IMG/VR virus record: IMGVR_UViG_2671180357_000002
Coordinates: 1 to 28,682 of that record
Length of the DNA stretch: 28,682 bases
Source: a virus
Taxonomy: Duplodnaviria > Heunggongvirae > Uroviricota > Caudoviricetes
Strand: one strand, 5' to 3'
Below the pieces are notes generated by a model. The model was not told the origin of the DNA, did no database searches, and worked only from the letters and a program-made list of their open reading frames with translations. Below, in pieces: positions 7,016 to 23,980 of this stretch. A program made the position numbers and the translations under genes. Within the stretch, counting starts at the first letter, position 1. Each line of letters starts with the position of its first letter.

Positions 7016-7353
7016 ATAAACCGTTGACATTGGCGGTCACAAATTGATTCTTTTCTATAAGAATCCGTTGATCGCCACTATTCCCCTTCTATACATTCAA
7101 TCACATCCTTAAATATCAACAGGTTATAGTTGTTTATACCAACAAGAAAACAACTAAATAACAGATCAACGAAACGTCAATGCTTTCCCCCGATTTGGTC
7201 TAAAAAATTGACGTTTTCACACATCACTTCTTATACCCGCAATCCTACGCAGCAGATAGCGCCACAGCGTTCAATTCTCACTACAGACGGACATACACAC
7301 CACCAATAAAAATACACGCCCAAAATCGCTCCCGCTGCGTTACATAACCATAT

Positions 7354-7397
7354 AAACAATTTGTTTTCAGGAATAACAAAACAACTAAATAACACAT
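7354..7397 (+). promoter_or_regulatory. Cassette-family leader (AAACAATTTGTTTT ... AACAAAACAACTAAATAACAC) with no convincing ORF downstream
   Basis: Same palindrome as other cassettes; downstream 7398-8510 encodes only low-complexity ORFs. Confidence 0.4.
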
Positions 7398-7415
7398 ATG
7401 CCATTCCCCAAAACA

Positions 7416-7507
7416 ACCCACCTCTTCCTGTCAGGCTACCGAAAAGACCCACCTCATTGCCCCAGGCTACAGACCACCCACCTAATATCCCCAGGCAACC
7501 GAGAACG
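7416..7507 (+). repeat. Three tandem ~30-bp direct repeats (ACCCACCT-N10-CAGGCWACMG), iteron-like
   Basis: Units begin at 7416, 7447 and 7476; a paralogous triple repeat lies at 11409-11496. Confidence 0.6.
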
Positions 7508-7533
7508 CGGCTCGCACGCGCAAACCCCGATAC

Positions 7534-7826
7534 GTCATTACCCAATACACGGAGAAGAACAGCCAGAACGAAACCCCGGACAAACCCAGACAAGAACAGG
7601 AGCCGTCACAATCTCGTTTACCCACCATTACCCCGAAAGAGAGCGCAAATTCCTGAATAGCAGGGAACGCCATTACTTCATATGCGGAGAACAACTAAAG
7701 CGCCCTACTGCCATTACCCACACTTCCATCAATTCACGTAAACGAAGAGAAAAGCGCACCTGCCATTATTCAATACACGGAGAAGAACACTCCCCAAAAC
7801 GACGAGAACAACCCAGAAAAGAACCA
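7534..7826 (+). repeat. Two ~65-bp direct repeats (7534-7600 and 7761-7826) plus dispersed GCCATTAY motifs in a CA-rich tract
   Basis: Both copies share CATTAYYCAATACACGGAGAAGAACA; the plus strand is strongly C+A rich across 7400-7900. Confidence 0.5.
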
Positions 7827-8064
7827 CCTCAAGAACAATGAAACCACATACGCCGGTAGAAAGAACAAACCACCCATTTCACCCACAGGAATAGTCGCCG
7901 TATTGAGCGTTATCAGAGAGAAGGTTTATGCCCACATAAGAGAGAAAATTTGTGGGAGGTATAAGTGGGAAGGGAAGGAGGGGTATCGCCACTTTCTTCG
8001 TATAAATTCAAGCCATAGTTTTCATCCCCCGTAACGTCCCTTTCCACCCCTTCGGTCAGCCTTC

Positions 8065-9809: not shown

Positions 9810-9836
9810 GTATTGTAAGTACTTACTTATGATAAT
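9808..9836 (+). promoter_or_regulatory. Sigma70-like promoter (-35 TTGTAT, -10 GATAAT, 17-nt spacer) whose spacer contains palindrome GTAAGTACTTAC (9815-9826)
   Basis: Hexamers and palindrome read directly; the same palindrome recurs at 22371-22386 and as variants at 16841-16852 and 25812-25831. Confidence 0.5.
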
Positions 9837-12915: not shown

Positions 12916-12933
12916 GATTAAGCTCCTTAAAAC

Positions 12934-15231: not shown

Positions 15232-16791
15232 TTACTCTCTATCCAAAACAGTGAAATCGAATGTGCTGCCAACCGGCAAGACCCCCTCGGCAAACCCAGG
15301 CGTCGTGTCGATAATGTGTTTCCGCTCATATGAATGCGACATGAGGTATTTGTTGCTCACGTCGATGAAGTCGGTAATAAAGCACACGTTAGCCTGATTT
15401 TTCTTGGCTCGTAAGCCACGACCGACACGTTGTCTCATTTCAACTTCTGCTTTCCCGCCACCACCCAGAATCACCGCGCCTACGCTTGGAACGTCGACAC
15501 CAACATCCAGAATGGTTGAACCAATGAGAACATCTATCTTGCCTGCCGCCAGACTATTAAGTTTTGCTTGTCGGGTAGTCTGGTTTGATTCTCCGTAGAT
15601 GAAATCGACCTTGAGGCCACTCTCTTTCATCATTTCCATCAAGATCTGACCATGACGCTTCAGACGAACCAATGTCATACAGTTCAGACCGTGACTCTTG
15701 TACATTAGCGCTTCACGCACAATAGCTTCGTTGCGGCCCAGATTATAGACGATGCCTAACTGATAGGCTTTCTGGTAAGCCGTGCTCATTCCAACCCTAA
15801 AATTCAGGTGTTTTGAAGCAAGTTCGACTCTAATCCGCGCCTCATCTGGAGTGTACGCGATTTTATGATATAAAAAGTATGGTTTCGCTAAAATACCTCT
15901 GTCGATCAAATATTTCTCCGTTACTTTTATCTCGATGCGACCCGCAACGGCCATGAGACGCATATTTGCTTCAGTCGAATCCTTCATGAACGGCGTAGCT
16001 GTCAGCGCCAGACGGTAGTCGGCATTGGTACACAACCGGGCTATATCGTAGAAGTTTGAGCCGGATGATTCGTGCGCTTCTTCCAGAATCAGCAGAGAAA
16101 CGCTGGACAGGAAGCGCTTAACCAATTCCCGGCGTTTCAGGTGATACTGTTTTTTCTCTGGAGATGCGTCGCGCGACGGCTCTTCGAGAAAACTAACAAG
16201 GGTCTGAACCGTGGCAACGTTGATATGGCGCGATACCTGGAACTCACCAGATCCAATCACCCCAACTTTCTGACCTTTCAGCCACGGCTCGCCATTCTTC
16301 GCGCGGTAGTCGATGGATTTCTGGAAGTTCTCTGCCATCTGGAACATCAGAACCGATCGCGTGGTTAAAAACAGCGTCATACGACCAATGCGAGCAGCAG
16401 CCTTACACGCTACGTTCGATTTACCGCCACCCGTCGCAATCTGGGCAATCATCATCCCTTCGCGCACCAGTGTTTCCACTGTCTGATCCTGATACGCGTA
16501 GTCCGGGTTATACGGGAATGGGTTAACCACCGGATTCGGCTTACCCAGCGCGGGAGCTTTTTCCTTGCGAACATGCACGCATTTGATGCCAGCTTTCAGA
16601 AGATTGGTCGCAACTGGCTTCGCAAACCCAGCCGGGAACGCGTTTTTACTCCAGTTGAACATCGTGCTGGTCCCTTTCCAGTCACCAGCCTCCACTTCAT
16701 AGCTCAACATCTCCTGAACAAGCCGTTTCACGTTGTCATCAGCGCCAGAAATCAGCGCATTGACTGCATTTGATACAATCCGAACAGTCAT
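15232..16791 (-). CDS. Superfamily 2 DEAD/DEAH-type helicase with ~100-aa N-terminal extension
   Basis: Motif I IATGGGKS, motif II LILEEAHES, motif III LTATPF, motif VI QRVGRGLR; strong SD AAGGAAAGAGG upstream. Confidence 0.85.
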   Translation of the reverse strand: MTVRIVSNAVNALISGADDNVKRLVQEMLSYEVEAGDWKGTSTMFNWSKNAFPAGFAKPVATNLLKAGIKCVHVRKEKAPALGKPNPVVNPFPYNPDYAYQDQTVETLVREGMMIAQIATGGGKSNVACKAAARIGRMTLFLTTRSVLMFQMAENFQKSIDYRAKNGEPWLKGQKVGVIGSGEFQVSRHINVATVQTLVSFLEEPSRDASPEKKQYHLKRRELVKRFLSSVSLLILEEAHESSGSNFYDIARLCTNADYRLALTATPFMKDSTEANMRLMAVAGRIEIKVTEKYLIDRGILAKPYFLYHKIAYTPDEARIRVELASKHLNFRVGMSTAYQKAYQLGIVYNLGRNEAIVREALMYKSHGLNCMTLVRLKRHGQILMEMMKESGLKVDFIYGESNQTTRQAKLNSLAAGKIDVLIGSTILDVGVDVPSVGAVILGGGGKAEVEMRQRVGRGLRAKKNQANVCFITDFIDVSNKYLMSHSYERKHIIDTTPGFAEGVLPVGSTFDFTVLDRE

Positions 16792-16840: not shown

Positions 16841-16852
16841 GTAAGTGCTTAC
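16841..16852. promoter_or_regulatory. Palindrome GTAAGTGCTTAC in the divergent promoter region between the helicase operon and the late operon
   Basis: One-mismatch variant of GTAAGTACTTAC. Confidence 0.4.
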
Positions 16853-16855
16853 ACA

Positions 16856-17554
16856 ATGTATTGTATCAAAAATATGGGTGTGAAAATTACGATTCTACAG
16901 GTGGAAGTCGCGAACCTGCGTCCGAACCCCTGGAATACCAACTCCGTTGGGGCGCAAAACTTCGAAAAACTGAAAGGTTCCATCGAAAAGTTGGGCTTTT
17001 TTAAGCCAATTCTGGCGCGAGAGCTGGACGGCGGCATTTTTGAAATTCTCGGTGGCGAACATCGCTGGCGTGCCGCGATGGAGCAGGGCATTTCAACGGT
17101 TCCCGTCATCTCCGTGGGCAAAATTAACGACCTGGTGGCCAAACAGATGTCCCTCGTCGACAACGAGCGCTACGGCGAAGACGATCAGGTCGCTTTGCAG
17201 CGCTTAATCGAAGAAATCCAGTCTGAAATCGACTACCGGTTGTCCGATATCGCCCCGTATGACGACGAAATGGCGGCAACGCTCGCCAAAGCATCCGTTA
17301 TCGATCTTGAAGCGCTGGAAGCGCTCTCCCGCGGCGATGACGAGCCGATCGGTGAGGACAAACGCGAGAAAATCGAGCGAGTCGGTGCTGAACACCAGAC
17401 GATGCGCTTCAAAGTGACGTTCGATGCGTCAGATCGCGTCGCCGATACCATCAAAACCATCATCAAAGAGCAGGGAATCAATACCGGTAACGAAATGGAG
17501 AACGCCGGGGAAGCCTTGGTGTGGCTGGTCGACTACTACAAGGAGCGTATGTAA
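16856..17554 (+). CDS. ParB/Srx-fold (ParB N-terminal nuclease-like domain) protein 1
   Basis: LRPNPWN ... LKGSIEKLGFFKPILAR ... ILGGEHRWRAA match the ParB N-domain signature; start could be ATG 16874. Confidence 0.8.
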   Translation: MYCIKNMGVKITILQVEVANLRPNPWNTNSVGAQNFEKLKGSIEKLGFFKPILARELDGGIFEILGGEHRWRAAMEQGISTVPVISVGKINDLVAKQMSLVDNERYGEDDQVALQRLIEEIQSEIDYRLSDIAPYDDEMAATLAKASVIDLEALEALSRGDDEPIGEDKREKIERVGAEHQTMRFKVTFDASDRVADTIKTIIKEQGINTGNEMENAGEALVWLVDYYKERM

Positions 17555-18222
17555 TGACCAAGAACTTTGAAATCGTATATCGAAACCCGGCAGAACTTAT
17601 CCCGTATGAGATGAACGCCAAAAAACATGACGAACAGCAGATCCGCGACCTGGCGGCTGCCATCAAAAAGCGCGGTTTTGACCAGCCGATCACGGTCGAC
17701 AAGCACGACGTCATCATTACTGGTCACGGTCGTCGCGAGGCGGCACTTCTGGCTGGTCTGGAGCGTGTGCCTGTCATCGTTCGCGACGATCTGAGCGAAG
17801 AAGAAGTGAAGGCGAAGCGTCTTGAAGACAACCGCCTGGCCAGTATTGACTACGACGCCATCAAATTGCAGCAGGAACTGGAGTCCCTGGTGCTGGGTGA
17901 CGTTGAGGTCTTTGGTTTTGAAGAGCGAGAGCTGAACGTGCTTGTTGGCAGCATGACCGAAGAGATGGAAACAGGCTCTCTGGTGCTCGATCTGGGTGAA
18001 GAGACGGAACGCCAGAAAGAAGAGCACACCGAGATCAGTCGCGAAGTGGCCTCTGAAGAAGTCCGAGTCATCGACGTATTGGGCTTTAAAACGCTCCCTG
18101 CTGGCTCTGCCATTGTGGTTGGGGATTTGCTTGCCCACATGGAAGAAATTACGGGAGAAAGCGGGGTAGACGCTTTCGTGGCGTATGCGGAGAAAGTTTC
18201 CTCTGGGGAGCTGGCTGCATGA
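17554..18222 (+). CDS. ParB/Srx-fold (ParB N-terminal nuclease-like domain) protein 2
   Basis: NPAELIPYEMNAKKHDEQQI ... ITGHGRREAA; ATG overlaps the upstream stop (TAATG); SD AGGAG at 17541-17545. Confidence 0.8.
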   Translation: MTKNFEIVYRNPAELIPYEMNAKKHDEQQIRDLAAAIKKRGFDQPITVDKHDVIITGHGRREAALLAGLERVPVIVRDDLSEEEVKAKRLEDNRLASIDYDAIKLQQELESLVLGDVEVFGFEERELNVLVGSMTEEMETGSLVLDLGEETERQKEEHTEISREVASEEVRVIDVLGFKTLPAGSAIVVGDLLAHMEEITGESGVDAFVAYAEKVSSGELAA

Positions 18223-18857
18223 GCAAATACACCATCAATGTATCGTTTCAGACTCGCGTGAACAAAACCACGCGCACGCTGGAGATTGCCGAATCGTTCG
18301 GTCTTGGCCTGGACGAAAAAGAGTGGACGCTTTACGACAATCTGGAGCTGGAAGTGAAGCAGGGCGATGTGGTGTACATCACCGGCCAATCCGGTTCAGG
18401 TAAATCTGTTGTTCTGCGCGAGCTACAACGCCAGATGAAAGATGAAGGGCTTTCTGTGGCCTCCATCGATAATTTTAATTTCGACAATGAGGTTAACGTC
18501 ATCGACCAGCTGGGCAAAACCACCAGTGAAGCGCTGGGCTTGCTGTCTATGGCCGGATTGAATGACGCCTATCTTTTTGTGCGCAAGCCATCCGAGATGT
18601 CTGACGGCCAGAAATACCGTCTCAAGATCGCCAAGCTGATCGAGTCCGGCGCCAAAGTCTGGGCAGCAGACGAATTTGGTGCTGTTCTCGACCGGGTAAC
18701 CGCTCAGGTTGTGGCGTCAAACCTCCAACGTGCTGCTCGTAAGGTCGGCGCAACGGTAATGGTGGCGACGACCCACGAAGATCTGAAGAACGCGCTGCGC
18801 CCGGATATGCAGATCACCAAGCACTACAAAGAACGTGTGAAGGTGGAATATGCCTGA
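18219..18857 (+). CDS. Minimal ABC-type ATPase (nucleotide-binding domain only)
   Basis: Walker A GQSGSGKS, signature-like MSDGQKYR, Walker B VWAADEF, H-loop ATTHE; start overlaps the upstream stop (ATGA). Confidence 0.8.
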   Translation: MSKYTINVSFQTRVNKTTRTLEIAESFGLGLDEKEWTLYDNLELEVKQGDVVYITGQSGSGKSVVLRELQRQMKDEGLSVASIDNFNFDNEVNVIDQLGKTTSEALGLLSMAGLNDAYLFVRKPSEMSDGQKYRLKIAKLIESGAKVWAADEFGAVLDRVTAQVVASNLQRAARKVGATVMVATTHEDLKNALRPDMQITKHYKERVKVEYA

Positions 18858-19104
18858 TTTGAAGATCGTAGAGCTGAAGCCATCGAAAGAGACTGACAAC
18901 AACAACGTTGAAGTCATCCGCCTGCTGGAAGAAGCACTCCAGTACGCAAGAGAAGGCAAAAGTCAGAGCCTGGCTCTGCTGATGATCGACAACGACGGCA
19001 ATGTTATGGATTGCTGGCATAACGGTGGGCGTCCATACGTCATGGTTGGGGCGATGGAATCGCTTCGCCTGGACTTCATCAATGCCAATATCGAGCGCAG
19101 GTGA
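18850..19104 (+). CDS. Hypothetical small protein (84 aa)
   Basis: SD AAGGTGG; overlaps the ATPase stop; same-strand coupled operon. Confidence 0.55.
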   Translation: MPDLKIVELKPSKETDNNNVEVIRLLEEALQYAREGKSQSLALLMIDNDGNVMDCWHNGGRPYVMVGAMESLRLDFINANIERR

Positions 19105-19109
19105 TCGAC

Positions 19110-20000
19110 ATGACAGGCATCATCATCAAACGCTACCGCCCGGAAGAGTTCCCGCGTCATCTGGACTTTCTGGAGCGTATGACCGTTACCAAAGGCACGG
19201 TTGAAGACTGGCACGCGCTGAAGTCGCTGCACTACAAGACGGATGGTAAGCCGTTCGCGCCAACGTATTATCGCTGCGAACTGGACGACCGGCTGGTGGG
19301 CGTCGTGGTTATGGCTTACCCGAAACTGCTGCTGGCGCCTCGCCATCGCATGTTTCCTAAGCTGAAGCCAACCACCAATACCACCGTGGCCAACCAGTAT
19401 TGGGGCCGGTACGTGAACAACAACTTTGCCGTGATCAGCCGTTCCGTTGTTGACACTCAGTACCGCGGTGTCGGCGTCTCCTATCGAATGATTAACCTGG
19501 TTAGCAGGATGCACGACCGGCCAATCATCGAGATCCAGTCGTCGATGAGCAAATACAACCCGTTCGCCATGAAAGCAGGGTTCCAATTCATCCGTCCGGA
19601 GCGTCCGAAGAGCTATGAGAGTGCGTTGCGCGTCTTCCAGCGTCATTTCCGTTCTGACCCTGGCGACAACGAAGCGATCGTCAAAGAGCTGTTCGCCATG
19701 AGTGAGTCTCGCCGTCGTCGTGCGCTGCGTGATCTGGTCGCTGACTACCACAAGAACAGTTCCCTGGCCAAAGCCGGGCGTAATCGTGGCACGACGATTC
19801 AGGACATTGCCGACAGCCTGGTGGACGAGGCCAGCATCGTGAAGCTGCTCAAGGACATTCACAACCTGAGCTTCACGTCTCCGCTGTATGGCGTGTACCG
19901 AAACCCGGACTTTGGTCGTCAGCTGCCGGACACGCTGCCACTGCTGGCATTCGACAAACAGCCTTTGAATAAACCTCTTGAAATTGCATTACCGGCATAA
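19110..20000 (+). CDS. Hypothetical protein with GNAT-like acetyltransferase motif
   Basis: NNFAVISRSVVDTQYRGVGVSYRMINLV resembles GNAT motif A; ATG 19110 lies 5 nt after AGGTGA. Preferred over the 299-aa antisense ORF 18963-19862. Confidence 0.55.
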   Translation: MTGIIIKRYRPEEFPRHLDFLERMTVTKGTVEDWHALKSLHYKTDGKPFAPTYYRCELDDRLVGVVVMAYPKLLLAPRHRMFPKLKPTTNTTVANQYWGRYVNNNFAVISRSVVDTQYRGVGVSYRMINLVSRMHDRPIIEIQSSMSKYNPFAMKAGFQFIRPERPKSYESALRVFQRHFRSDPGDNEAIVKELFAMSESRRRRALRDLVADYHKNSSLAKAGRNRGTTIQDIADSLVDEASIVKLLKDIHNLSFTSPLYGVYRNPDFGRQLPDTLPLLAFDKQPLNKPLEIALPA

Positions 20001-20009
20001 GGATTTGCC

Positions 20010-20276
20010 ATGACGTTGACCGACAAACAAAAAGACATCATCAAAACCATCAATTTAGGCCATGAGCGTGGGCATCTGCTCGATCTGGACGAGCTGCTTG
20101 AAGTGCTGCCGTACAAAACGACCAAACAGAGTATGCAGTTCTCTATCCGCGCACTGGTGAAAAAGGGGCTGGTGGAGAAAGGAATGTGCCGCCAGCGCGG
20201 TGATTCCGGCTACCACCGTCGCACGCTGGGACTGACCACGTTAGGTCGTGCCAGAGCCAAATTACTGGTGATGTAA
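20010..20276 (+). CDS. Hypothetical small protein (88 aa), possible winged-helix DNA-binding protein
   Basis: SD AAGGA 6 nt upstream; helix-rich with basic C-terminus (weak inference). Confidence 0.5.
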   Translation: MTLTDKQKDIIKTINLGHERGHLLDLDELLEVLPYKTTKQSMQFSIRALVKKGLVEKGMCRQRGDSGYHRRTLGLTTLGRARAKLLVM

Positions 20277-20301
20277 GTCGGTCTGGGAGCCAGTTTGAGA
20301 G

Positions 20302-20356
20302 CCTGCTTCCGTATATATAAATACTAAGTGACTTATTAAATATATACGGAAGCAGG
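20302..20356. repeat. 16-bp perfect inverted repeat CCTGCTTCCGTATATA / TATATACGGAAGCAGG with 23-nt AT-rich loop
   Basis: Arms at 20302-20317 and 20341-20356; lies between the 88-aa gene and the small terminase gene; no T-run. Confidence 0.8.
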
Positions 20357-20393
20357 TTCTGAATACTCCCCAGCCCGGTTTTAAACACCCAGA

Positions 20394-20437
20394 AAACAAA
20401 TTGGTTAGGCACTGAATTAAACAAGTTGTTTAGGAGC
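20394..20437 (+). promoter_or_regulatory. Two cassette-type palindromes (AAACAAATTGGTT and AAACAAGTTGTTTA) + AGGAG upstream of the small terminase gene
   Basis: Same motif family as the early-gene cassettes. Confidence 0.45.
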
Positions 20438-20471
20438 GCAAGGATGCGCTCTGAGTGTTTTAGAGGGATCT

Positions 20472-21113
20472 ATGACTGTAGAAAAAGACGAGAGCAAAAC
20501 TCGCCTGACACCAGCTGAGTGGGCAGAAGCCGAAGCGAAGTGGACTTCCGGCGAATACACACTCTCCAGGCTGGAGGAAGAGTACGGCATTCGTCGTGAA
20601 ACGCTCTCCAGACATTTCAAAAAGCGTGGATTAGAGAAAGGCGCGGACTCCGTTGGGAAGATGGTGCGCGAGTCGCTCAAATCCGACGCAGAGCTGCGTG
20701 CGAAGGCGCGTGCAGAGAAAATCGAAGAGCGCCGGACTCGTTACGACGATTGGGCGTTCGCACTCGGTCGTATGGTGATGCATGAGGTGGCCACAGCCAA
20801 GAAGGACGGCAGGCCACTGGCAGCCATCGAAGATGACCTGAAGAGTCTCCAGCGTGCCAGCGGCACACTCGCTAAGTGCTTCGAAATATCGTCGAAAGCG
20901 CTCGGTATGGATCGCGTGGAGAACGAGGACGACGAAATCCCGAACCTGGTATTTGGCGAACTTACGCCTTCCCAGGTGGCGCAGCTGCGTAAGGAAGATG
21001 ATGAGCCGGATCTGATTGATGACGATCTGCTTGAGTCACTCGAAGAGGAAGCACTGAGCGAAGCTGAGGGCGATTCTGAAGCGTCTGGTGATGAAAGTGA
21101 TGGGAGCGTCTGA
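20472..21113 (+). CDS. terS: Terminase small subunit (putative)
   Basis: Immediately upstream of the large terminase; N-terminal HTH-like segment (YGIRRETLSRHFKKRG); highly acidic C-terminal tail. Confidence 0.6.
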   Translation: MTVEKDESKTRLTPAEWAEAEAKWTSGEYTLSRLEEEYGIRRETLSRHFKKRGLEKGADSVGKMVRESLKSDAELRAKARAEKIEERRTRYDDWAFALGRMVMHEVATAKKDGRPLAAIEDDLKSLQRASGTLAKCFEISSKALGMDRVENEDDEIPNLVFGELTPSQVAQLRKEDDEPDLIDDDLLESLEEEALSEAEGDSEASGDESDGSV

Positions 21114-21115
21114 CT

Positions 21116-22372
21116 ATGGCCATCCCGTCGTCTCTGAGTCTCGTACAGCTGCATTCTGGGCAGATGCAAGTCTTCCAGTCGCCACATCGTTTCAAAGTGG
21201 TGTGTGCGGGTCGACGCTGGGGTAAATCCCGGTTGTCGATCTCCACCATCATCCGCGCGGCAGCCAAAGAGAAGAAGCAACGTGTCTGGTATGTCGCACC
21301 GACTTACCAGATGGCTCGCCAGATCTTGTGGGATGACCTGCAGGAAGTTCTGCCGCGCAAATGGGTTCGTAAGAAAAACGACACCACGATGACCATCGTG
21401 CTGAAGAACGGCTCTGAAATCGCGCTGAAAGGTGCGGATAAGCCCGATACGCTTCGTGGTGTGGCACTGCACTTTGTGGTGCTCGATGAATTTCAGGATA
21501 TGAAGCCTGACACCTGGTACAAGGTACTGCGTCCGACACTGTCCTCCACCCGTGGCGGTGCGCTGATCATCGGTACGCCAAAAGGCTTCTCCGAGTTCCA
21601 CAAGCTGTGGACTATCGGTCAGAACAAAGATTTGCAACGCAAGGGGCAGTGGAAGAGCTGGCAGTTCGTTACGGCCGATTCTCCGTTCGTACCGAGCGCG
21701 GAAATCGAAGCAGCGAAGAACGATATGGACCCTAAATCGTTCGCACAGGAATACCTGGCCAGCTTCGAAAACATGTCCGGACGCGTTTACTACCCGTTCG
21801 ACCGCAATGTGCATGTGAAGCCACTCCAGTTCAATCCGAAACTGCCGATCTGGGTTGGTCAGGACTTCAACATCGACCCTATGTCATCGGTCATCCTGCA
21901 ACCGCAGCCAAATGGTGAACTGTGGGCTGTGGACGAATTGGTGTTGTTCTCTTCTAACACGGCTGAAGTGTGTGACGAGCTGGAGCGTCGATACTGGCGC
22001 TGGAAATCTCAGGTCACTATCTTTCCTGACCCGGCAGGTGCGTATCGCCAGCACGCACGCGGCGAATCTGACGTCGACATCTTCAAAGAGAAAGGTTTCC
22101 TTCGAGTCGATTATCCGAAGAAGCACCCGCCGATCGCAGACCGTGTTAACGCAGTGAACCGCATGTTGATGAGTGCCTCGGGCGAAACCCGGTTGTACAT
22201 CGATCCGAAGTGCAAACACCTCATCGACTCGCTGGAGAAGGTGATCTACAAGCCAGGCTCACGCGATATGGATAAGACTGGCGGCATCGAACACAGTGCG
22301 GATGCGTTGGGTTATCCGGTTCATCGTAGGTATCCGGTGAAAAATCGTGTTATTCTTGGTGGATCTAGATAG
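21116..22372 (+). CDS. terL: Terminase large subunit
   Basis: Walker A VVCAGRRWGKS, Walker B HFVVLDEF; followed by portal, scaffold and capsid genes. Confidence 0.8.
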   Translation: MAIPSSLSLVQLHSGQMQVFQSPHRFKVVCAGRRWGKSRLSISTIIRAAAKEKKQRVWYVAPTYQMARQILWDDLQEVLPRKWVRKKNDTTMTIVLKNGSEIALKGADKPDTLRGVALHFVVLDEFQDMKPDTWYKVLRPTLSSTRGGALIIGTPKGFSEFHKLWTIGQNKDLQRKGQWKSWQFVTADSPFVPSAEIEAAKNDMDPKSFAQEYLASFENMSGRVYYPFDRNVHVKPLQFNPKLPIWVGQDFNIDPMSSVILQPQPNGELWAVDELVLFSSNTAEVCDELERRYWRWKSQVTIFPDPAGAYRQHARGESDVDIFKEKGFLRVDYPKKHPPIADRVNAVNRMLMSASGETRLYIDPKCKHLIDSLEKVIYKPGSRDMDKTGGIEHSADALGYPVHRRYPVKNRVILGGSR

Positions 22373-22386
22373 GTAAGTACTTACCT
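22371..22386. promoter_or_regulatory. 16-bp perfect palindrome AGGTAAGTACTTACCT between terminase and portal genes
   Basis: Perfect palindrome; same core as the promoter-spacer palindrome at 9815-9826. Confidence 0.5.
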
Positions 22387-22405: not shown

Positions 22406-23980
22406 ATGGAATTGACTGACAAGCAAATCAAAGACCTTGTGGCACGACGCCACCCTGAATATGAGAAGAAAAAAGAACATTGGGACTTCCTCGCCAGCAC
22501 CTACGCTGGCGGGCGTGCCTGGTTCAACGACAATATCTTCCGTTACTTCAAAGAGGGCGATCAGGAGTTCAAAGAGCGCCTGGAACGCGCTTATCGCTTC
22601 AACCATACGCGCGAAGTGGTAAACCTCATCAACAAATACCTCTTCAAAGAGGTCATTCACCGCAACACTGATGAAGCACCGGAGCAGATCCGCAATTTCT
22701 GGAAGCGAGCCACGCGCCAGAACGCCTCCATCGATGCGTTTATGGCGGCTATCGATCTGCAATCATCCATTTATGGCCGTATCTGGGTTGTCGTGGATAG
22801 CACGATGAACGTCGATGTTGAGTCTGTTGCAGACGAGAAGAAAAATGATGCGCGTGCCTACGCTTACTGGATTTCGCCGCAGCAGCTGCTTGATGTTGCC
22901 TGGGATGAAGACGGCAATATGTTGTGGGCGCTGATTGTTGAAATCGCGCGCGACGACGAAGATCCGTTCACTTCAACCGGGCAGGAATACCAGCGTTACC
23001 GTCTGTGGACGCAAAACGAGTGGTATCTGTTCCGTGAAGAAGTGAAGAAGGGTTCCGGAAATAGCGGTCGCCGTCAGGCCAAAGTCGTTCTGGAGGATAG
23101 CGGCCAGCATAATCTGGGCGTGGTGCCGGTGTTCCCGGTGGATTGCATTGGTGAAAGCGAGTCTCCGTATTTTAGTCCGTCGTTGATTGACGATATTGCC
23201 TATCTTGATCGCGCCGTGGCCAACTACCTGTCGAACCTTGACGCGATTATTCAGGATCAGACATTCAGCCAGTTAGCGATTCCGGTTCAGTCCCTGCTGC
23301 CGGGCGATGAAAACCACACCAAAGTGCTCGAAATGGGGACAAAACGTGTCTTCACCTTCGATTCTGAGAGCGGTAATCAGCCATTCTATCTGTCTCCAGA
23401 CCCGAAACAGGCTCAGATGATCATCACCACGATTAAGACGGTGATTAATGAGATCTACCATTCCGTTGGTGTGGCTGGTGAGCGAACCAAGCAGGATAAC
23501 GCGCAGGGTATCGACAACTCTTCGGGGGCAGCGAAGATGTACGACTTCCAACGTATTAACAGTCTGCTGGTGACAAAAGCAGAGCGCCTCGAAAGGGCAG
23601 AACGCCAAATGATGGAGTTGGCTGCGAAATGGATGGGCATCGAATTGGATGAAGACCACTCTCTGATCGCTTACCCGGAGAGTTTCGATATTCGTGGTCT
23701 GACTGACGAATTTGCCGTCGCTGAGAAATTGTCGCTGTTACAGGCGCCTGATTCTGTACGTCGTCATCAGATGGAAATGCTCATAGAAAAGATCTTCCCG
23801 AATATTTCCGAAGCGATGCAAAAGGAATTTAAAAAAGATCTCTTGAAATTTCCTCTAAAAAATGCTCCTGATGCCCTTGAAAATAAGTTGGTATTTACTT
23901 ATGATCGCGATACAGTCCAAGAAAGCGGACAAGATCAACCCCGAGGGAATGGGGACTCATCTACTCAAGAGACCGAGTGA
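22406..23980 (+). CDS. Portal protein (putative, by position and size)
   Basis: 524 aa directly after the large terminase; strong SD GGAAAGGAAA. Confidence 0.55.
   Translation: MELTDKQIKDLVARRHPEYEKKKEHWDFLASTYAGGRAWFNDNIFRYFKEGDQEFKERLERAYRFNHTREVVNLINKYLFKEVIHRNTDEAPEQIRNFWKRATRQNASIDAFMAAIDLQSSIYGRIWVVVDSTMNVDVESVADEKKNDARAYAYWISPQQLLDVAWDEDGNMLWALIVEIARDDEDPFTSTGQEYQRYRLWTQNEWYLFREEVKKGSGNSGRRQAKVVLEDSGQHNLGVVPVFPVDCIGESESPYFSPSLIDDIAYLDRAVANYLSNLDAIIQDQTFSQLAIPVQSLLPGDENHTKVLEMGTKRVFTFDSESGNQPFYLSPDPKQAQMIITTIKTVINEIYHSVGVAGERTKQDNAQGIDNSSGAAKMYDFQRINSLLVTKAERLERAERQMMELAAKWMGIELDEDHSLIAYPESFDIRGLTDEFAVAEKLSLLQAPDSVRRHQMEMLIEKIFPNISEAMQKEFKKDLLKFPLKNAPDALENKLVFTYDRDTVQESGQDQPRGNGDSSTQETE

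Follow-up and report, generated by a model that had tools for sequence, protein, structure and literature searches.

A split ABC-GNAT enzyme with ParB-fold partners beside the terminase genes of an SSU5-type phage-plasmid: a candidate system for acylating viral DNA

What might a run of tightly coupled genes, encoding two ParB-fold proteins, a lone ABC-type ATPase, an acetyltransferase-like protein and a small winged helix-turn-helix (wHTH) protein, be doing beside the packaging genes of a tailed phage? The question is raised by positions 16856-20276 of a 28,682-nt stretch of DNA from a Caudoviricetes virus (positions 1-28,682 of IMG/VR record IMGVR_UViG_2671180357_000002; hereafter the window), where an earlier note, made from the letters alone, had described a module of six open reading frames (ORFs), here g1 to g6, and had suggested a DNA-marking, packaging-initiation or anti-defence machine. 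The module is 96.7% identical in DNA to the right end of Salmonella phage SSU5, and by this similarity the window is part of an SSU5-type phage-plasmid. The names of the six genes are generic in all deposited records ('ParB-like', 'ABC transporter', 'hypothetical'). Sequence and profile comparisons allow us to be more precise: g3 and g5 are demonstrably the two halves of one predicted ATP-dependent acyltransferase, split into two genes. As for the module as a whole, we give roughly even odds, a probability of about 0.5, to the reading that it is a late-expressed system for ATP-dependent acyl modification of the phage's own DNA, with the ParB proteins acting as activators.

The ATPase half, g3 (18219-18857, plus strand, 212 amino acids), matches ABC_tran in Pfam (E 3.8e-13) and contains a Walker A motif (G56-S63), a signature (S128-DGQ131), a Walker B motif (D151-E152), a D-loop (L157D158) and an H-loop (H186), all at positions that are invariant throughout a family of fused ABC-GNAT proteins. 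It has no membrane domain, coiled coil or second nucleotide-binding domain (NBD); its relatives in the PDB are compact, transporter-class NBDs, and ABC-F families appear among its weaker matches. Its identity to the N-terminal half of two of these proteins, P0157 and P0181, is 45-49% (E ~1e-65). Moreover, g3 is the most conserved gene of the module, at 53-81% identity across relatives as against 54-84% for the large terminase (TerL), whilst g5, g1, g2 and g6 all diverge faster. A true ABC transporter is ruled out, since g5 is a GNAT and no Pfam transmembrane or permease family is found in g4, g5 or g6; the 'ABC transporter' names in the databases are annotation carry-over.

The acyltransferase half, g5 (19110-20000, plus strand, 296 amino acids), begins with a GNAT fold (residues ~1-165 in structure prediction) that carries the acyl-CoA motif R119-x-x-G122-x-S124, continues with a family-specific helical domain (residues ~166-260), and ends in a lineage-specific tail, NPD-x-GR-x-LP...LPLLAFD-x-Q. 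NCBIfam gave no match for g4, g5 or g6; the closest neighbours of g5 in viruses and in the PDB include Mom-type DNA-modifying GNATs. An exhaustive profile search with g5 recovered ~1,000 relatives. Those outside the phage lineage are mostly 440-560 amino acids long, with the g5-like region at residues ~200-480, and Pfam reads them as an ABC_tran domain followed by a GNAT domain. The g5 profile matches the C-terminal halves of these fused proteins at E 1e-16 to 1e-28, and hhalign places g5 on gp2 of Gordonia phage Sisko at E 1.6e-5. Fourteen g5 residues are invariant across split and fused forms; and because the cofactor motif of the GNAT, along with several polar residues, stays unchanged all the way from enterobacterial to archaeal viruses, catalysis is under selection.

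As a single chain, the enzyme is represented by more than 2,000 homologues in tailed viruses of archaeal and bacterial hosts, usually encoded beside TerL; Bathyarchaeia, Nitrososphaeria and Methanocella account for most of them, and Firmicutes for some. IMG labels the family 'ABC-type ATPase with predicted acetyltransferase domain', the record of phage Cyrano names the enzyme 'MK0520', and we take it to be what carries a COG2401-type label. Several members are elaborated further: P0189 (1260 amino acids) has a family-B DNA polymerase fused N-terminal to the enzyme, P0154 (665 amino acids) has a TFIIB repeat fused C-terminal to it, and P0166 (847 amino acids) holds a LAGLIDADG intein inside the ABC domain. 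The split form, on the other hand, is found throughout the lineage of SSU5 and Pseudomonas phage nickie, with 15-1,200 bp of variable cargo lying between g3 and g5. The ABC and GNAT proteins that the earlier note had treated as separate players are thus the divided form of an enzyme that elsewhere is a single chain.

The gap between the two halves alters the count of genes as well. In the window it holds g4 (18850-19104, plus strand, 84 amino acids), for which phrog_796 is the sole match, with no Pfam domain; g4 is absent from Cyrano and many near relatives, and present in only a subset of near-identical ones. In relatives whose flanking genes are 84-99% identical, the distance between g3 and g5 measures 30 bp (empty), 256 bp (with g4) or ~544 bp (with a different ORF of ~183 amino acids), and in distant relatives the slot contains a gp49/66-family protein, a BTLCP (transglutaminase-like) protease, a thioredoxin, a HAD/PNKP phosphatase or a RyR-domain protein. 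The 96-amino-acid proteins in the same slot of two distant relatives, L005 and L006, are 21-25% identical to g4 and may be distantly related to it. A slot that can be empty or filled with unrelated genes rules out g4 as a core subunit, and because its content varies so much, we define the core module as g1, g2, g3 and g5, usually with g6. The proposed six-gene unit therefore gives way to a smaller one, with g4 as interchangeable cargo in a hypervariable slot. This slot corresponds to 18857-19110 in the window, and the same junction is variable in loci L004-L107; smaller variable inserts are also seen at the g1/g2 and g2/g3 junctions of some relatives.

Upstream of the enzyme lie two ParB/Srx-fold proteins, both with Pfam ParB_N matches: g1 (16856-17554, plus strand, 232 amino acids; ParB_N E 8.7e-14, phrog_723 E 1e-84) and g2 (17554-18222, plus strand, 222 amino acids; ParB_N E 9e-9, phrog_930 E 3e-115). 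Their N-domains are 31% identical (BLASTP E 6e-8), and by this likeness they are distant paralogues, in line with what had been noted earlier. They also share an architecture: the ParB/Srx N-domain is followed by a helical stretch, an acidic linker and a small conserved C-terminal segment, which in g1 is ~45 amino acids long (MRFKV...NAGDALVWL). Family alignments give PNPWNTN, GG-x-HR and DN-x-RYG-x-DD as the invariants of the g1 N-domain, and PY-x-x-N-x-K-x-H, G-H-G-R and R-x-x-D-N as those of g2. Box II therefore reads GG-x-HR in g1 and G-H-G-R in g2, a D-N-x-R box III is kept in both, and the retention of these motifs makes it plausible that both proteins bind a nucleoside triphosphate (NTP).

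Neither protein resembles a partition ParB in its remaining features. Pfam matched ParB_N only and detected no HTH_ParB domain in g1 or g2, their TIGR00180 scores (39 bits for g1, 47 bits for g2) lie below the cutoff of 58 and so below partition-ParB level, and sequence searches gave no support for a ribbon-helix-helix at the g1 C-terminus. The best PDB sequence matches of g1 are Spo0J/Noc N-domains. The g2 N-domain is closest to ParB-methyltransferase fusions (phrog_498 E 1.6e-32; PADLOC MTase_II E 6.6e-18), and both N-domains score highest against families of ParB domains fused to DNA methyltransferases. A PADLOC search of the module returned generic P-loop or ParB-methyltransferase matches only, with no defence-system membership. 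A putatively NTP-binding N-domain joined to a C-terminal domain, with no helix-turn-helix (HTH), is what g1 and g2 have in common with ParB proteins of the activator type.

Is this arrangement peculiar to SSU5 and its close kin? In the lineage itself, all of the ~100 related loci that we examined have an identical gene order, even where protein identity falls to 30-45%, and g1 is present in every one. The order runs from a divergent helicase through g1, g2, g3, the slot, g5 and (mostly) g6 to a gap, a TerS-like gene, TerL and the portal gene, so the ParB-ParB-ABC order beside terminase, whose conservation the earlier note had wanted checked, is kept in all of them. Such consistency argues against a chance assembly of genes. 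With 36-50% identity, g5 has relatives in Ectothiorhodospira, Hyphomonas, Photobacterium, Novosphingobium, Paraburkholderia, Massilia, Acinetobacter, Halomonas and others; phage nickie has the same order, and g6 accompanies the module in most, not all, lineage members (tblastn). Chromosome-embedded copies lie at 1.57 Mb of a 3.27-Mb contig and in a 4.2-Mb Halomonas chromosome. On plasmids, the module is abundant: 785 PLSDB entries carry it (Klebsiella 316, Escherichia 220, Enterobacter 92, Yersinia 62, Salmonella 49). Yersinia pestis plasmids of ~96 kb are among these matches, and a 108-kb Y. pestis contig encodes a 100% identical g5; judging by size and host, we take these ~96-108-kb plasmids to be pMT1. 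Cultured phages with the module or the enzyme include SSU5, Cyrano, nickie, RHEph10, Gordonia phages Sisko and Jace, and Leptospira phage LE4.

A few of these loci deserve a remark of their own. Among loci L087, L090 and L098, contigs with a g5 91-100% identical to that of the enterobacterial phage-plasmid are filed under Bacillota bacterium and Candidatus Fimivivens metagenome-assembled genomes, and a 44% relative under Candidatus Saccharibacteria; these host labels probably reflect binning contamination rather than real hosts. In Halomonas sulfidaeris (AP019514.1, 1.89-1.91 Mb), frameshifts affect the helicase, g5, TerS, TerL and portal genes alike, and represent either a decaying prophage or assembly indel errors. 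Upstream of the helicase in L004-L006, a few genes away and on the strand opposite the module, there is a dCMP deaminase gene, joined in one of them by a radical-SAM gene; a link of these genes to DNA base chemistry is possible.

Beyond the lineage, every context of the enzyme that we sampled is viral. In at least 40 of 80 IMG/VR loci, TerL (Terminase_6N) lies directly upstream of the fused enzyme. In 35 of the 80, no further gene follows the enzyme, the contig ending <600 bp beyond it, and in none is it the first gene. This position, together with TerL upstream, suggests a fixed place at one terminus of the genome or provirus. In a bathyarchaeal provirus, the enzyme gene even overlaps the TerL stop, and in prophages of Heliorestis and Desulfofarcimen a few genes separate it from TerL and portal further downstream, with Amidoligase_2 and GGACT genes coming after it. 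Other settings are replicative: in a 98-kb phage and in Nonlabens phage P12024S, the enzyme sits amid DnaB, RecJ, PolIII-alpha or primase genes. Tenacibaculum phage pT24 is also among the tblastn matches of the enzyme.

The cultured phages bring the ParB proteins back into view. Gordonia phage Sisko opens with a ParB-like gp1, the fused ABC-GNAT enzyme as gp2, a gp3 annotated as 'tRNA-methyltransferase' in which we find a Formyl_trans_N (formyltransferase) fold, and the terminase as gp4. In phage Jace, a ParB-like gp85 and ABC-GNAT gp86 are followed by an aspartate decarboxylase (PanD) as gp87, and in Leptospira phage LE4 a ParB-like gp14 and ABC-GNAT gp15 precede three small genes and then TerL. 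Streptococcus prophage 315.4 has a ParB_N gene, a g3-like ABC gene, a small ORF, an ASCH protein, a TerS-like gene and TerL; in a variant of this arrangement, Oenococcus phage Vinitor-27 has a g3-like ABC gene after a ParB_N or 'methyltransferase' gene. In a Porphyromonas phage, ABC-GNAT is followed by a formyltransferase at the record end. Counting SSU5/nickie, Sisko, Jace, LE4 and Streptococcus 315.4, a ParB gene directly upstream of the enzyme recurs in at least five independent lineages from four bacterial phyla, and the idea that the ParB association is confined to the SSU5 lineage is overturned by these cultured-phage contexts. Archaeal viruses usually have no ParB gene beside the enzyme. 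The formyltransferase, amidoligase/GGACT and PanD genes downstream hint that the transferred group may be elaborated in several steps.

From these linkages we infer the substrate, the acyl donor, the role of the ParB proteins and the timing. DNA acylation is our favoured explanation because DNA is what all the contexts share (terminase, replication genes, polymerase and TFIIB fusions, ParB, wHTH), and because the neighbouring amine and acyl chemistry genes are typical of multi-step base hypermodification pathways. In the mechanism that we posit, g3 would dimerise on ATP like other ABC domains and clamp or open duplex DNA, allowing two attached g5 subunits in a g3(2)g5(2) complex to reach the exocyclic amine of a base. 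Here, g5 would move an acyl group, perhaps acetyl or a small aminoacyl-type group, from acyl-CoA, and in some lineages the product could be elaborated by the formyltransferase, amidoligase/GGACT or PanD neighbours. The ParB proteins g1 and g2 would act as DNA-loading activators that give access to double-stranded DNA (dsDNA), much as ParB176 does for 5mYOX176 and DpdB for DpdA, and g6 might regulate or target the system, possibly through TAAG-N-CTTA palindromes at the starts of g1, TerS and the portal gene. As the module is placed beside the genes for packaging, DNA would receive the mark after replication, before or during its encapsidation. Once injected into the next host, the genome would then be shielded from restriction or from other defences that sense DNA.

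On the nature of the mark we are more tentative. ASCH proteins are N4-acylcytosine amidohydrolases and erasers of N4-acetylcytidine (ac4C) on tRNA or nucleosides, and because they occur as neighbours, N4-acyl-cytosine is our candidate: a chemically new, post-replicative acyl group on an exocyclic base amine, which would make up a widespread viral class. In some lineages, the transferred group may be aminoacyl and undergo formylation or amidoligation afterwards. We put the chances of this more specific proposal somewhat short of even.

Several points weigh against DNA acylation. There is no recognisable DNA- or base-binding domain in g5, whose helical C-terminal domain has no structural match, and g3 is most like transporter-class NBDs, and not the DNA-clamping SMC, Rad50, UvrA or MutS. 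The variants in Streptococcus 315.4 and Vinitor-27 have an ABC protein of ~225 amino acids and no detectable GNAT. A ParB protein is not obligatory, given that archaeal viruses carry the enzyme without one. Our literature searches found no modified base reported for SSU5-like phages or other carriers. Lastly, adjacency to terminase fits a packaging-linked protein target equally well.

This last point leads to the rival that we take most seriously, although we still consider it unlikely: the ABC-GNAT enzyme could acetylate a packaging-linked protein (terminase, portal, capsid or a DNA-bound host nucleoid protein) or a polyamine, thereby clearing or conditioning the DNA for encapsidation, with the ParB and wHTH proteins as tethers. 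The tight linkage of the enzyme to TerL in archaeal, Firmicutes, actinobacterial, spirochaete and proteobacterial viruses would suit such a role, as would the fact that in 35 of 80 viral contigs it stands at the end of the genome or contig, and the TerL-like conservation of g3, which is what one would expect of a morphogenesis-linked function. However, some members are fused to a DNA polymerase or belong to replication modules at a distance from terminase, the formyltransferase, amidoligase/GGACT, PanD and ASCH neighbours resemble a modification pathway rather than a morphogenetic one, and the ParB-type proteins known to assist enzymes do so for enzymes that modify DNA. We know, moreover, of no acetylation requirement in tailed-phage packaging. 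Another rival gives substance to packaging initiation, which the earlier note had named: the ParB/Srx proteins would nick or bind DNA in a pac/cos complex, g6 would sit at the inverted repeat that follows it, the ABC protein would remodel DNA for the terminase, and the GNAT would be regulatory or vestigial. The module does lie directly upstream of a conserved inverted repeat and of TerS and TerL, the SSU5 record is linearised inside that repeat (a record end, and not a mapped DNA terminus), and genes annotated as ParB-like 'nuclease' are common beside phage terminases. Yet a GNAT motif that is invariant from enterobacterial to archaeal viruses speaks for selected catalysis, the enzyme is also found away from terminase, and a canonical TerS-like gene, coupled to TerL, is present in the lineage anyway, all of which makes this reading improbable in our eyes; of the functions first proposed, it is DNA marking and anti-defence that the evidence favours.

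An RNA target seems more doubtful still. Here the GNAT would make ac4C in tRNA or rRNA, as TmcA/NAT10 does, and so tune late translation. TmcA/NAT10 offers a known precedent for an NTPase-coupled GNAT working on nucleic acid, the ASCH neighbours belong to proteins established experimentally as ac4C erasers, and ABC-F proteins, which surface among the weaker g3 matches, act on ribosomes. But g3 and g5 have no similarity to TmcA domains, and the associations with ParB, wHTH, TFIIB, DNA polymerase and terminase all indicate DNA. Least probable, and largely refuted, is plasmid partition or maintenance by ParB proteins with an ABC-type motor in place of ParA. It draws on database names that read 'ParB-like partition protein' and on the fact that the element is kept as a plasmid, as in the 785 plasmids above. 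SSU5, however, has a separate ParA-like gene (30497-31162) with a small downstream ORF ~70 kb from the module, and neither the domain content nor the TIGR00180 scores of g1 and g2 are those of partition proteins. The module is kept in the chromosome-embedded elements and in phage nickie, ParB and ABC genes occur together in small Gordonia, Leptospira and Streptococcus phages, and the partner is an acyltransferase. The outcomes that would have spoken against a distinct system, namely an ordinary partition system or a lack of conserved gene co-occurrence, are thus not what we found: co-occurrence is strongly conserved.

How does a DNA-acylating module compare with known systems? Mom of phage Mu is a GNAT-fold enzyme that modifies adenine at N6, is expressed late and counters restriction. 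Unlike the enzyme described here, Mom has no ATPase partner, ParB or helical C-terminal domain, and at the sequence level g5 does not belong to the Mom family. TmcA/NAT10, an NTPase-coupled GNAT that makes N4-acetylcytidine in RNA, shares the concept of coupling NTP hydrolysis to a GNAT acting on a nucleic-acid base; its ATPase, however, is helicase-like, whereas g3 is ABC-type, and its substrate is RNA. Pfam found no TmcA_N, GNAT_acetyltr_2 or tRNA-binding domain in g3 or g5, the one faint TmcA_N match being on TerL. With ParABS, g1 and g2 share the ParB N-terminal fold with its box II/III-like motifs, but the module has no ParA partner, HTH or partition-type score, and its sole ATPase is an ABC NBD. 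The Dpd and Dnd systems come nearer, in that a ParB-superfamily protein, DpdB or DndB, works with a DNA-modifying machine, and Dnd also has an ABC-superfamily ATPase, DndD. Their chemistry is different, being deazaguanine insertion and phosphorothioation; DndD is coiled-coil and SMC-like, whereas g3 is a compact transporter-like NBD; the module has no TGT, DndA, DndC or DndE homologue; and Dpd and Dnd are cellular defence systems with restriction partners. DpdB itself, a ParB-like ATPase, is described as aiding DpdA in work cited in PMC12839542.

Two strands of literature bear on the module directly. Iyer et al. (2021, Viruses 13:63; PMC7824862) predict that an ABC-ATPase-coupled GNAT acylates a DNA nucleobase, name Tenacibaculum phage pT24 as an example, and cite for it a 2013 prediction by Iyer, Zhang, Burroughs and Aravind (NAR 41:7635). 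The enzyme of the window is the same: g3 and g5 are orthologous to its two halves, with the same ABC motifs, GNAT invariants and helical C-terminal domain. It differs in being two genes with a cargo slot between them instead of a single chain, in its lineage-specific C-terminal tail, and in its setting among two ParB paralogues and a wHTH gene. As to the ParB proteins, O'Toole et al. (2026, PNAS; PMC13229309) established that, to work on dsDNA, a T-dioxygenase needs phage ParB homologues, which have no DNA-binding domain, as its activators, and reported that ParB homologues occur in phage hypermodification clusters. That 5mYOX system resembles ours in having a ParB protein with an NTP-binding N-domain, a linker, a small C-terminal domain and no HTH, adjacent to the enzyme; on the other hand, the partner there is an Fe/2-oxoglutarate dioxygenase, there is one ParB, and the likeness to g1 and g2 is one of architecture and of adjacency. 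A 2025 survey (PMC12704722) adds that the ParB-CTPase fold binds CTP, ATP or GTP, is often fused to methyltransferases in phages, and in one ParB-acetyltransferase fusion binds GTP.

Our literature searches found no experimental study of the ABC-GNAT enzyme or its carriers, and nothing specific on the SSU5 ParB and ABC genes or on the IMG-labelled enzyme. The earlier view that this is not a described system is therefore right in the sense that the module is uncharacterised experimentally, and needs amending in that its core enzyme had already been predicted computationally to modify DNA, and that ParB activators are established. What is documented here is the split of the enzyme around a cargo slot, the linkage of ParB, enzyme and terminase that recurs across phyla, the pairing of two ParB proteins with a MarR-like partner in the SSU5/nickie lineage, and the very wide spread of the module on clinical plasmids.

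If DNA is indeed the target, the implications would be considerable. Enzymatic DNA modification would gain a new chemical class, ATP-dependent acylation by a GNAT, and the module would provide a second, independent case of ParB-fold activators of DNA-modifying enzymes. This would be a class of viral DNA modification so far unseen, shared by tailed viruses of archaea, by phage-plasmids in Klebsiella, E. coli and Salmonella, and by the presumed pMT1 plasmids of Y. pestis; in the phage-plasmids, the mark would affect the passage of these elements across restriction and defence barriers between clinical strains; it would also affect sequencing-based base calling and the DNA-modifying enzyme toolbox. 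Should the target prove to be a protein, an ABC-driven acetyltransferase genetically tied to terminase would be a new player in virion assembly. Either way, the module is easy to work on, being carried by cultured phages and very common on enterobacterial plasmids.

The last gene of the module, g6 (20010-20276, plus strand, 88 amino acids; phrog_900), had been described as small and wHTH-like. A profile built from 19 homologues matches the MarR-family protein ST1710 (2eb7) in the PDB over the recognition helix and wing (E 9e-4), followed by further MarR, Lrs14 and RosR wHTH proteins, and on this evidence g6 is a MarR-like winged helix. Immediately after it, the gap to the TerS-like gene (20277-20471) holds an inverted repeat at 20298-20360, with 21-nt arms (20298-20318 and 20340-20360; 20 of 21 positions complementary) and a 21-nt AT-rich centre containing the palindrome TAAGTGACTTA (20325-20335). 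At the same position, distant relatives also have long inverted repeats, AT-rich at the centre and different in sequence, with arms pairing at 19/19 (L006), 24/25 (L097) and 11/11 (L005) positions. The SSU5 GenBank record is linearised inside the repeat centre and ends 62 nt past the g6 stop, counted from feature coordinates. The repeat could be a pac/cos-associated site, an operator or an operon boundary.

A related palindrome, TAAGTGCTTA, occupies 16842-16851, 5 nt upstream of the g1 ATG at 16856 and within the 64-bp divergent gap between helicase and g1. The exact form TAAGTG(N0-1)CTTA has two matches in the window, as against 0.06 expected, a number that none of 100 shuffles reached; these are the copies upstream of g1 and at the centre of the inverted repeat. 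A relaxed form, TAAG-N(1-3)-CTTA, recurs at 22374-22383 in the gap between TerL and portal, and further palindrome sites lie at 9816-9825, 12919-12929 and 2047-2055. An Acinetobacter relative has the motif at the same three kinds of position. Palindromes before g1, the TerS-like gene and the portal gene would fit co-regulation of the module with the packaging genes, and TAAG-N-CTTA is a candidate g6 operator, or a late-gene operator or activator site.

The surroundings of the module are as follows. On its left, a UvsW/DEAD-type helicase gene (15232-16791, minus strand; DEAD, ResIII and Helicase_C domains) runs divergently. On its right, a 195-bp gap leads to the gene for a TerS-like DNA-binding protein (20472-21113, plus strand; phrog_867 and SSU5 annotation), TerL (21116-22372, plus strand; Terminase_6N, phrog_2 and SSU5 annotation) and the portal gene (22406-23980, after TerL). 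The placing of the module at the head of the late operon should be taken as a suggestion, because this gap, with its large inverted repeat, parts g6 from the TerS-like gene; a simple promoter and terminator scan gave no signal above background.

The six same-strand ORFs are all present and translationally coupled, with junctions as first described; the five domain assignments of the earlier note are right too, as is its remark that the ATPase has no transporter or coiled-coil partner. The g1 stop and g2 start form TAATG (17552-17556), which sets the g2 start at ATG 17554, and a Shine-Dalgarno sequence, AAGGAG, precedes it at 17540-17545. The g2/g3 junction reads ATGA (18219-18222), g3 and g4 share 8 nt, ATGCCTGA (18850-18857), and the g6 ATG (20010) lies 9 nt beyond the g5 stop. 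The g4 stop codon is at 19102-19104, and the g5 ATG at 19110 begins 5 nt beyond it. GTG 19101 is a possible alternative g5 start; ATG 19110 is probably the true one, since a Shine-Dalgarno sequence (AGGTGA), the N-termini of homologues and the SSU5 annotation agree on it. For g1, the start may be ATG 16877 in place of 16856.

Far from the module, at ~7100-7900, the window contains a stretch that is rich in A+C and strongly strand-asymmetric (GC skew -0.28, AT skew +0.29). Imperfect direct repeats of 26-31 nt occur there in several families, and the longest ORF is 147 amino acids. Three ACCCACCT...CAGGCTAC repeat units lie at 7416-7502. Perhaps these are iterons or a binding-site array, or the stretch could be a non-coding RNA region.

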